NCBI GenBank assembly: GCA_038999725.1
Contig: JAWBWS010000001.1
Location: forward strand, 41,620 to 105,619
Direction of reading: 5' to 3'
DNA length: 64,000 nucleotides
Source of the DNA: Candidatus Aenigmatarchaeota archaeon
GTDB lineage: Archaea > Aenigmatarchaeota > Aenigmatarchaeia > CG10238-14 > SCSR01
The notes under the pieces were generated by a model, which worked only from the letters and a program-made list of their open reading frames with translations, did no database searches and had not been told where the DNA came from. This document shows positions 35,008-51,721 of the stretch, piece by piece; position 1 is the stretch's first letter; the number at the start of each line of letters is the position of its first letter. The position numbers and the translations under genes are program-made.

Positions 35008-35067
35008 TCTCTTCCCCTTAAAAAATCTACAAATATAATATTAGTCGTGTAAAGAAATATAGATTAG

Positions 35068-35151
35068 GCCCCAGTAGCTCAGCCTGGAAGAGCAACTACC
35101 TCGTAAAGTCGAAAAAGTAGTGGGTCGAGGGTTCAAATCCCTCCTGGGGCT
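35068..35151 (+). tRNA. tRNA-Thr(CGT) with 10-nt intron at 37/38 (35106-35115)
   Basis: GCCCCAG/CTGGGGC acceptor; ACTAC/GTAGT anticodon stem around a 17-nt loop. Confidence 0.88.
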
Positions 35152-35225
35152 TTATTTAATCCAAATCATTAAACCTGCACTAGCAAATAGAATGAATTAA
35201 AGGTTTTATAAGTTAATTCAATCTT

Positions 35226-45168: not shown

Positions 45169-45735
45169 CTATGGAGTAAGGCGCTTAATTTCGTAATAAG
45201 TGCAATCATTCTCTCTGTCTACAACCGCCCACACGAAAGTCGCCCTTATATTATGTGCAAGTCTCACTGCCCTCGACATTTCTGGTAAAGAAAAGGCTGC
45301 TTCTTCTGGAACAGCATGAACTACAAATTTTGTGTGTTCATGTGGGGCTTTTGGTCCTCTTACAAGCTTTACTCCTCTTTCGTAAACTCTGAAATGGGCA
45401 CCAAATTTAAAACCAGTTTTCACCAGATAGCCTCTCTCCCTCAAGTCGCGATAAACTACAAATTGAGGATGAAATTGGTTTACTATTTTTGTTGCAATTT
45501 CTAAAAACTCCTTCAAGTCTACATATCTCCTCTTTTCTCCCTCTTTTAAAAAAACTTTCATTCTCCCTTTCTCTAAAAGATAGGCTGCCTCCACGAGCTC
45601 CAATTCAAGCCTACTGGGATTTTCTTCAGGAACTGGTTTACCAAAACCAGAATCATCATAAAGTCTAACAGCATCCTTATCCCAAATTATTACTCTGTTT
45701 TCCACTAATTCTCCTTCCCAAATTTTCTCTGCCAT
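45169..45735 (-). CDS. endA: tRNA-intron (splicing) endonuclease, single-unit type
   Basis: LELVEAAYL; YRDLRERGY; KTGFKFGAHFRVY; RLAHNIR. Confidence 0.93.
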   Translation of the reverse strand: MAEKIWEGELVENRVIIWDKDAVRLYDDSGFGKPVPEENPSRLELELVEAAYLLEKGRMKVFLKEGEKRRYVDLKEFLEIATKIVNQFHPQFVVYRDLRERGYLVKTGFKFGAHFRVYERGVKLVRGPKAPHEHTKFVVHAVPEEAAFSLPEMSRAVRLAHNIRATFVWAVVDRENDCTYYEIKRLTP

Positions 45736-45780: not shown

Positions 45781-46293
45781 CTACACCCAAACTTTTTTAC
45801 GACAACTTTGGCAAAGCTCTTTATTTTTCCTGTCCACATCACCAATAGTGTTTGAAAAACTCATCACACATGTTGAAATTGAGCAATGACCTAAACCAAG
45901 CATATGACCAACCTCATGAATTGCTTCTTTGACTGCTCTTTCTATCAGAAGGTTTTTATCTGGTTTTTGTCTATAGAAAGTTGGATCAAGTCTATGGATT
46001 GAAACAACACCATAATTTCCATGATAATAAGCTTGACCAAAAACAAAATTCAAATTTTCGGCATAAAGATCTTTATCTGTAACCCCTAAAGTTTTATTTT
46101 GAAATTTTTCCGATAAAAATTTAAGTACAAGAGGAGCGGGATATTGGTGCCGAATCTCATTGTAAATTTCCTTCGGAATCTCTATTGGTCTTGTTGTCTC
46201 TGTACTCAACTCAAATTTTTCTCTTAATTCCGAAGCTATCGCCGTAAGTACCTCCTCGGGAATTTTTCCAAGCTGAACAATTGTGATTTTCAT
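45781..46293 (-). CDS. amzA: Archaemetzincin Zn-metalloprotease
   Basis: NFVFGQA; HEVGHMLGLGHC...CVMSFS. Confidence 0.93.
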   Translation of the reverse strand: MKITIVQLGKIPEEVLTAIASELREKFELSTETTRPIEIPKEIYNEIRHQYPAPLVLKFLSEKFQNKTLGVTDKDLYAENLNFVFGQAYYHGNYGVVSIHRLDPTFYRQKPDKNLLIERAVKEAIHEVGHMLGLGHCSISTCVMSFSNTIGDVDRKNKELCQSCRKKVWV

Positions 46294-46476
46294 AAAGATA
46301 ATTTAAGTTTAAAAAAAGAAAAAACAAGAGGATACATTAAAATTCAATTAACTCCACATTTTGTATTTTTATCATTCTTTATAGACTTTATTTAACCTTC
46401 TTCTGTGATTGTAAATGTCTATATTTTCGCTTTTTTGATTGCCATTAAAGAAGATGAATTTAAATTGAGTTTCTTG

Positions 46477-46581
46477 TGGGGCGGGTGGGATTTGAACCCA
46501 CAACACATCGCTCTTCAGGCGATCTAGAGCCAAATGGTTGCTCTCCCGGGTTGAGCTTGCGGTAATTAACATTACCGCCCC
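46477..46581 (-). tRNA. tRNA-Phe(GAA) with two non-canonical introns (46557-46572 at 9/10; 46524-46538 at 26/27)
   Basis: Removing 16+15 nt gives a 74-nt cloverleaf with ATCGC-CTGAAGA-GCGAT; both junctions have perfect 4-bp central helices (GCGG/CCGC, AGAG/CTCT). Confidence 0.87.
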
Positions 46582-46697
46582 GCTCCGCCCCATTTTTTAA
46601 TATTTTATTTTTAATAATTTATCTTGTTTATACTTTGAATAATTCTGGATCAAATCTCTGTAATTTCCAATAAAATTATAAAGATTAATTCTACACT

Positions 46698-47384
46698 TCA
46701 ATTTATTCTTAACCTATATTTTATTCCTTCTTTAATCACAAAAATCAAAACCCCAAAAACCATCCTGATTCCTCTTAAAAATCCTGATTTTTTCTTGTAA
46801 GTTATTGTTACAGGGACTTGAGCAATTTTAATTTTATTTTTCACTGATGAAATCAACATTTGATCTTCGAGGATATACCCCCCATGGATGTCATCTTTAA
46901 TCTTTTCCATGGCTTTTCTAGAAAATGCAACAAAACCGCAATTCGTGTCTTCCAATTTTTGCTTAAACAAGAGATTAAAACTTGTCTTCCAGATAAAATT
47001 ACCAAGCCTGTGCCTCAATGGCACTTTTGACCAATCTCTCTTCCCCATGACAAAATCCGCCTTTCCCTCTTTTAGAGGCTTAAGAAGATTTATCGCTTCA
47101 TCTGGTAAATATTGCATGTCGGCATCAACAATAACAACATTCTCAGTAGAAGGATATTTTTTGATTAAAAAATTGATGCCTGTTTTGATAGCTTCACCTT
47201 TCCCTTTATTTTTCTCATGTCTCAAAACAAGTGCTCCAGCTTTCTTTGCCAACTCAAATGTTCTATCTTTTGAGCAATCGTCAATTACAATCACCTTTAA
47301 GCCAATTTTTTTCAATCTATAAACAACCTCACAAATAGTTTTTTCTTCATTATAGGCTGGTACGAGTGCTATTTGCATAATCAA
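46698..47384 (-). CDS. GT2 glycosyltransferase (dolichol-phosphate mannosyltransferase-like)
   Basis: VPAYNEE; IDDCSKD; NKGKG; DADMQ; DTNCGF. Confidence 0.9.
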   Translation of the reverse strand: MIMQIALVPAYNEEKTICEVVYRLKKIGLKVIVIDDCSKDRTFELAKKAGALVLRHEKNKGKGEAIKTGINFLIKKYPSTENVVIVDADMQYLPDEAINLLKPLKEGKADFVMGKRDWSKVPLRHRLGNFIWKTSFNLLFKQKLEDTNCGFVAFSRKAMEKIKDDIHGGYILEDQMLISSVKNKIKIAQVPVTITYKKKSGFLRGIRMVFGVLIFVIKEGIKYRLRIN

Positions 47385-51565: not shown

Positions 51566-51615
51566 AAAAAGAAAATTATTTTTAAATTAGTTAAGCTTAA
51601 ATAAAATTTTAGGAA

Positions 51616-51709
51616 GCCTCGTTAGCTCAGTTGGTAGAGCATCCGAAGAGTTAAAACTCTGGTGAACCTTGTAAGCGGAGGGTCGTGGGTTCAAATCCCA
51701 CACGAGGCT
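51616..51709 (+). tRNA. tRNA-Thr(TGT) with 21-nt intron at 30/31 (51646-51666)
   Basis: GCCTCGT/ACGAGGC acceptor; strict BHB with CATC/GGTG helix and inner AGAG/CTCT stem; 73 nt mature. Confidence 0.92.
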
Positions 51710-51721
51710 TTCAAGCAAATT

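Follow-up and report, generated by a model that had tools for sequence, protein, structure and literature searches.

The only tRNA-Phe gene found in the genome of this DPANN-type archaeon (0.73 Mb, 35% G+C, 93% complete) is a tRNA-Phe(GAA) gene of three exons and two introns, located at 46581-46477 on the minus strand of the window, that is, the whole 64,000-nucleotide stretch of DNA analyzed here. Its 5′ leader carries an exact copy of tRNA nt 1-7. We consider it probable, with some reservation, that this leader copy would act as a stand-in acceptor strand, permitting splicing at site 9/10 of a functional two-intron tRNA-Phe gene. The 9/10 splicing motif needs the tRNA's own 5′ strand, and the 7-bp, G/C-rich acceptor stem would normally outcompete the motif. 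The gene and its upstream region are composed of the following features.

46592..46635, minus strand: AT-rich upstream region with TATA-like boxes
46585..46591, minus strand: GGGGCGG, leader copy identical to tRNA nt 1-7
46582..46584, minus strand: spacer AGC, separating the leader copy from tRNA +1
46573..46581, minus strand: exon 1, GGGGCGGTA (nt 1-9; equal to GGGGCGGUA)
46557..46572, minus strand: intron 1, ATGTTAATTACCGCAA, 16 nt, at site 9/10
46539..46556, minus strand: exon 2, GCTCAACCCGGGAGAGCA (equal to GCUCAACCCGGGAGAGCA), nt 10-26, the D-arm and A26
46524..46538, minus strand: intron 2, ACCATTTGGCTCTAG, 15 nt, at site 26/27
46477..46523, minus strand: exon 3, 47 nt, nt 27-73

Exon 3 comprises the anticodon arm (GAA), the variable loop, the T-arm, the 3′ acceptor strand CCGCCCC, and the discriminator A73; CCA is not encoded at the 3′ end of the gene. 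Removal of both inserts in silico produced a 74-nt RNA that ARAGORN identified as tRNA-Phe(gaa) with a flawless cloverleaf, its stems of 7/4/5/5 bp being paired throughout. The core and identity bases U8, A14, G18-G19, G20, the T-loop UUCAAAU, and A73 were all read from the spliced sequence; G20, A73, and the anticodon are identity elements for PheRS. Intronless relatives match the exon junctions, in agreement with the preliminary description, which had proposed a tRNA-Phe with introns at 9/10 and 26/27. That standard tRNA scans would miss such a gene, as also proposed there, is borne out by the unspliced sequence, which received no ARAGORN call and no Rfam match (RF00005) at the gathering threshold or at E<=10. 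The Rfam miss is expected, since the two introns disrupt the acceptor/D and D/anticodon junctions.

A search of the assembly for a GAA arm in a tRNA context, a Phe-like D-arm, or an interrupted GAA loop disclosed no second tRNA-Phe, in a genome that is 93% complete. As the sole tRNA-Phe gene found in the genome, it must work; judged from its sequence, the locus is the functional, sole tRNA-Phe(GAA) gene found here. A 73-aa open reading frame (46372..46593, minus strand), whose ATG overlaps the leader copy, spans the entire gene and is almost certainly spurious, as previously suspected. Elsewhere, the window encodes an SRP RNA of archaeal type and numerous tRNA genes with introns. Rfam detected six tRNAs in the window, 82-118 nt long and all probably intron-bearing, and ARAGORN called two tRNAs with impossible anticodons ('cgta' and 'aa') at 35067-35152 and 51615-51710 on the plus strand.

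Both introns display two 3-nt bulges around a 4-bp helix. In intron 1, nt 4-7 of the exon (GCGG) pair with CCGC at the intron's 3′ end, leaving the bulges U8-A9-A and A-A-G10; in intron 2, A21-G24 (AGAG) pair with CUCU, leaving the bulges C25-A26-A and A-G-A27. The 9/10 motif thus borrows acceptor-stem bases for its central helix, as noted before. Intronless relatives alone leave each boundary ambiguous by 1 base (8/9 or 9/10, and 25/26 or 26/27), and the bulge rule decides between them. Because the 2′-OH of the central bulge base attacks (PMC12397907), the cut falls after the second bulge base, which places the sites at 9/10 and 26/27 and yields exact exons from both introns. The resulting A26 agrees with the closest intronless relative (L044). 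A GAGC/GCUC register for the central helix of intron 2 was considered and rejected; it would leave two surplus bases between the D and anticodon stems.

The two motifs had been described as near-perfect BHBs. The proposed elements, GCGG/CCGC with UAA and AAG and AGAG/CUCU with CAA and AGA, are present, but the minimum-energy fold is not the textbook one. In intron 1, this fold zips the 5′ bulge UAA into a perfect 8-bp hairpin, GCGGUAAU/AUUACCGC, and G1-G3 pair with the D-loop CCC, giving an 8-nt bulge at the 3′ site; an outer helix G1-G3:C11-C13 is possible, but its folding probability is approximately 0. In intron 2, the minimum-energy fold puts the 5′ site in a hairpin loop. The inner flanking helix h′ of the window gene has only 2-3 bp, and a proper h′ occurs in relatives with longer introns (L002, L059). 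Since the motifs appear minimal in the window gene, with the zipped UAA bulge in one and the 5′ site of the other in a hairpin loop, both are, as far as predicted folds can tell, best called relaxed rather than strict hBHBh′.

To describe the distribution of the introns, we compared approximately 80 tRNA-Phe genes of the same order. Every one of the nine genomes of the genus carries the 26/27 intron, as do several other genera, and the intron's inner helix h′ co-varies among relatives (CCGAT/ATCGG, CTGAT/ATCAG, and CCAAT/ATTGG). The 9/10 intron is found in two of the nine genomes of the genus and is polymorphic for presence or absence in at least six genera, a patchiness that suggests rapid turnover. 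Wherever it occurs, its central helix follows the gene's own acceptor stem: GCGG/CCGC, ACGG/CCGT, ACAG/CTGT, or GCAG/CTGT. Neither site is named in a review of archaeal tRNA introns that lists 3/4, 20/21, 22/23, 25/26, 29/30, 30/31, 45/46, 53/54, 56/57, and 59/60, followed by an open-ended 'etc.' (PMC4090602). The earlier suggestion that 9/10 and 26/27 are uncommon sites is consistent with that list but does not extend to this lineage, where 27 tRNA-Phe genes were seen to carry the 9/10 intron and the site is not rare.

In the comparison set, some tRNA-Phe genes carry three or four inserts (L035, at G059:C7, and L086, L088, and L094), located at 9/10, in the D-loop, at 26/27 or 30/31, and in the T-loop. 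In L049, L054, L060, L062, and L084, a further D-loop intron contains a CUGAUGA / AAUGAG / AUGAUGA stretch. The same kind of stretch, which is similar to a box C or K-turn motif, is present in the 26/27 introns of L050, L060, and L062, and the window's own 26/27 intron is without it.

The repetition of nt 1-7 upstream of the gene, reported in the preliminary description, is confirmed: GGGGCGG at -10 to -4 is an exact copy and could form seven Watson-Crick pairs with the 3′ acceptor strand CCGCCCC (nt 66-72). Within the order, an exact copy lies 2-10 nt upstream in 9 of the 15 genes with a 9/10 intron versus none of about 60 genes lacking it. A pattern search across the phylum (371 genomes; copy, exon 1, 10-30 nt, and GCTCA) disclosed a copy together with a 9/10-intron tRNA-Phe in 21 genomes, of which three or four belong to other families of the class, outside the order (f25, f36, f38), and the same pattern without the intron matched none of the 371; as the genomes are related, such counts overstate independence. 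This distribution indicates that the upstream repeat at 46591-46585 is no chance event.

One other interpretation of the repeat was discarded. If the upstream copy were the real exon 1, it should continue as the downstream copy does, which is always followed by UA; the bases after the upstream copy are AG here and vary in relatives (TC, AA, AT, CA, and others). The genome's other tRNA genes were also examined for leader copies, and none was convincing, the matches at C4:63179 and C3:61030 being due to chance or to the D-loop.

The gene and its introns could be genuine and the copy a neutral by-product, generated by tandem duplication through slippage or left as a scar of 9/10-intron insertion. 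We regard this as unlikely, although slippage does make such copies: three tandem 10-nt units, GGGACAGTAA, precede the tRNA-Phe body of L059 (G085:C20:25500-25551). The upstream stretch of L016, in addition, resembles a decayed copy of nt 1-17, and the copy is missing from six genes that carry a 9/10 intron. Against a neutral origin, no copy stands beside a gene lacking the intron in any of the 371 genomes. Among the 21 copies, 18 are exact, while the spacers (17 different ones, unrelated in sequence) and the intron loops have diverged; in genus g6 alone, seven different spacers accompany exact copies. The copies also track three acceptor variants. The three inexact copies (L093, L094, and L095) keep or improve the pairing with the 3′ strand. 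For L093, the U of the copy retains a wobble pair with G68. L094 and L095 have A4 in the copy where the exon has G4. In L095, whose 3′ strand was recovered, the copy can thereby form seven Watson-Crick pairs with that strand, including A4-U69, where the exon's G4 could form only a G.U pair; with the C of the intron, it is the exon's G4 that pairs, and the copy's A4 would be a mismatch. These substitutions suggest that the copy is matched to the 3′ acceptor strand, whereas the exon is matched to the intron. The six copy-less genes, moreover, have another G/C-rich leader with the same predicted effect (see below). Taken at the level of sequence, this conservation pattern argues against a neutral relic and is consistent with a copy retained as a stand-in acceptor strand.

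The three units of L059 correspond to exon 1 plus the first intron base, multiplied by slippage. L019 (G020:C35), a gene with the 26/27 intron and no 9/10 intron, has an exact copy of nt 1-9 (GGGAACGTA) at a distance of 69 nt upstream. This distant copy could be the relic of a lost intron or a copy with a long spacer. The genome of L019 holds a second, intronless tRNA-Phe (L063).

To evaluate the effect of the leader on folding, we computed pairing probabilities for 20 leader-copy genes at 37 °C and 65 °C. The controls were transcripts with the copy replaced by AAAUAAA and transcripts with the leader removed. Medians are given below.

37 °C, native leader: P(copy:3′ strand) 0.99, P(native acceptor stem) 0.00, P(central helix) 0.98
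37 °C, copy replaced by AAAUAAA: P(native acceptor stem) 0.78, P(central helix) 0.34
37 °C, no leader: P(native acceptor stem) 0.92, P(central helix) 0.12
65 °C, native leader: P(copy:3′ strand) 0.96, P(native acceptor stem) 0.00, P(central helix) 0.91
65 °C, copy replaced by AAAUAAA: P(native acceptor stem) 0.94, P(central helix) 0.06
65 °C, no leader: P(native acceptor stem) 0.95, P(central helix) 0.03

For the window gene with its native leader at 37 °C, the corresponding probabilities were 0.98 for the copy with the 3′ strand, 0.00 for the native acceptor stem, and 1.00 for the central helix. A shuffled-leader control discriminated poorly, since shuffles rich in G can still bind the C-rich 3′ strand, and it was replaced by substitution of the copy alone. 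In the predicted folds, the copy occupies the 3′ strand, which leaves nt 1-7 available to the splicing helix. The repeat had previously been suggested to compete for the 3′ acceptor strand; its co-occurrence with the 9/10 intron, its tracking of the acceptor sequence, and its capture of the strand in predicted folds all speak for that suggestion.

The six 9/10-intron genes without a copy have a G/C-rich leader that is complementary to exon 2, the D-arm. AGCUCUCCUGCU, for instance, precedes +1 in one gene and pairs with C11-C16 and G19-C25. The median energy of the leader:exon 2 duplex was -14.4 kcal/mol in these six genes versus -2.0 kcal/mol in 62 other genes. In five of the six, the leader switched the predicted fold to the intron helix; no switch was predicted for the sixth, L017. 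In these structure models, the D-arm-complementary leader appears to extend the outer helix of the splicing motif.

The promoter is probably contained in 46592..46635, which would put transcription initiation at the leader copy or slightly ahead of it. In ordinary tRNA-Phe genes of the order, a TTTAAAAA-type (TTTAAA) box lies approximately 27-34 nt before +1, and leader-copy genes have a TTTAAA-type box approximately 29-38 nt before the copy, all boxes having been read by eye. L059 and L060 have one promoter in common, with the copies inserted downstream of it. The similarity of the box-to-copy distance to the box-to-+1 distance of ordinary genes suggests that the copy is probably at the 5′ end of the transcript; this is uncertain for the window gene, whose nearest TATA-like box could put the start within the copy. 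The A+T profile was uninformative for promoter placement, because all of the upstream sequence is A+T-rich.

The same placement of the copy, where ordinary genes have +1 relative to the promoter box, would also suit a copy selected for some other use, such as an RNA polymerase initiator or G-rich start, a determinant of RNase P or 3′-end processing, or a shield against integrases or homing endonucleases. We consider such uses quite improbable. An initiator need not match each gene's own acceptor sequence, and a shield acting at the DNA level leaves the partition of A-U and G.U pairs in L095 unexplained. The genes adjacent to tRNA-Phe also speak against a shield; they encode a family 2 glycosyltransferase and an archaemetzincin, with no LAGLIDADG gene among these neighbors. 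The neighboring genes, including the endonuclease discussed below, are as follows.

46698-47384, minus strand: family 2 glycosyltransferase, neighbor of tRNA-Phe
45781-46293, minus strand: archaemetzincin (Peptidase_M54), neighbor of tRNA-Phe
45169..45735, minus strand: tRNA-splicing endonuclease, 188 aa, a single alpha-type unit (PF02778 and PF01974)

That the locus is a decaying pseudogene or a mis-assembly with unspliced inserts is scarcely credible and is rejected by the data: standard tRNA finders do give no call, but it is the only tRNA-Phe found in a 93%-complete genome, its exons are perfectly conserved with a flawless cloverleaf, and the same introns recur with compensatory changes across many independent assemblies.

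The splicing endonuclease gene, located 0.75 kb downstream of tRNA-Phe, encodes the presumed enzyme for both introns. A six-frame search of the genome with PF02778 and PF01974 gave one match each, disclosing neither a second (beta) subunit nor a three-unit chain. The closest full-length match was the M. jannaschii alpha4 enzyme (1a79). Compared with 1a79, the protein contains two inserts: one of 4 aa (GKPVPEENP) at the site aligned with the CSL, where the A. pernix loop is longer, and one of 6 aa preceding the region of the catalytic His. The single-unit alpha type has been described as strict for canonical motifs, and relaxed introns have been tied to (alpha-beta)2 or epsilon2 enzymes (PMC3239211); the combination of an alpha-type enzyme with relaxed introns is for this reason unexpected. 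The genome as a whole is full of relaxed, non-canonical introns, and this single alpha-type endonuclease is the only one detected in it.

Our model of the stand-in acceptor strand builds on how the gene is organized, how it is conserved and co-varies, how strictly the copy is linked to the 9/10 intron, and which folding switch is predicted; that the copy is transcribed, in which order the steps occur, and that cleavage takes place are inferred. The primary transcript would start at or near the leader copy of nt 1-7, and the copy would pair with nt 66-72 and stack on the T-arm as a substitute acceptor stem. The real 5′ strand would meanwhile be held in the intron hairpin, where the endonuclease (45169-45735) would cut after A9 and before G10; the 26/27 intron would be cut separately. 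Upon ligation, the 5′ strand would lose its intron partner and displace the copy, allowing the cloverleaf to form, and RNase P would then trim off the leader copy and the spacer. The genome encodes an RNase P RNA (123.6 bits). Several points weigh against the model. The window gene's minimum-energy fold departs from the textbook motif, its nearest TATA-like box could put the start within the copy, L017 shows no predicted switch, and the endonuclease resembles a type described as strict for canonical motifs. The motif is transcribed ahead of the 3′ strand, so that co-transcriptional folding might make a stand-in needless, and the copy could pair with the intron itself.

A broader proposal, to which we assign even chances, is that 5′-proximal introns of archaeal tRNA genes, when they borrow the acceptor strand, depend on a cis leader acting as an RNA chaperone, either as a spare acceptor strand or as a D-arm clamp, which would be removed after splicing by strand exchange and RNase P. 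This would constitute a general, undescribed layer of tRNA maturation that has arisen repeatedly. If true, it would explain the persistence of introns in the acceptor/D junction. It would also suggest that intron position is limited by competition from the tRNA's own fold, besides the endonuclease, and that a programmed conformational switch encoded in the 5′ leader is the cells' solution. A repeat of nt 1-7 upstream of a tRNA could serve tRNA finders as the signature of a hidden 5′ intron. The proposal further bears on intron gain and retention in tiny DPANN genomes with a single alpha-type endonuclease.

We found no published description of a leader stand-in strand, or of a leader element required for motif formation; in the Asgard preprint, the word 'leader' is absent. 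In other respects, the window gene is a further example of the known multi-intron archaeal tRNA genes, and its interest lies in the leader. Like those genes, it has short introns outside the anticodon, with two 3-nt bulges and a 4-bp helix that is partly exonic, and it shares with them the presence of more than one intron per gene, the failure of standard finders to detect it, and patchy gain and loss among close relatives. It differs in its sites (9/10 and 26/27), which the reviews consulted do not name, in belonging to a DPANN lineage, and in the single alpha-type endonuclease. The split and permuted tRNAs of Nanoarchaeum equitans, Caldivirga, Staphylothermus, and Thermofilum pendens offer a second comparison, as their leaders and trailers pair to build or extend the helix on the motif side (PMC3218864, PMC4390854). 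The D-arm-pairing leaders described here would do likewise, in cis. In contrast to the split and permuted tRNAs, the gene here is contiguous, and its leader copy, which would hold the 3′ acceptor strand as a competitor or placeholder, has no intron-side pairing and forms no part of the motif.
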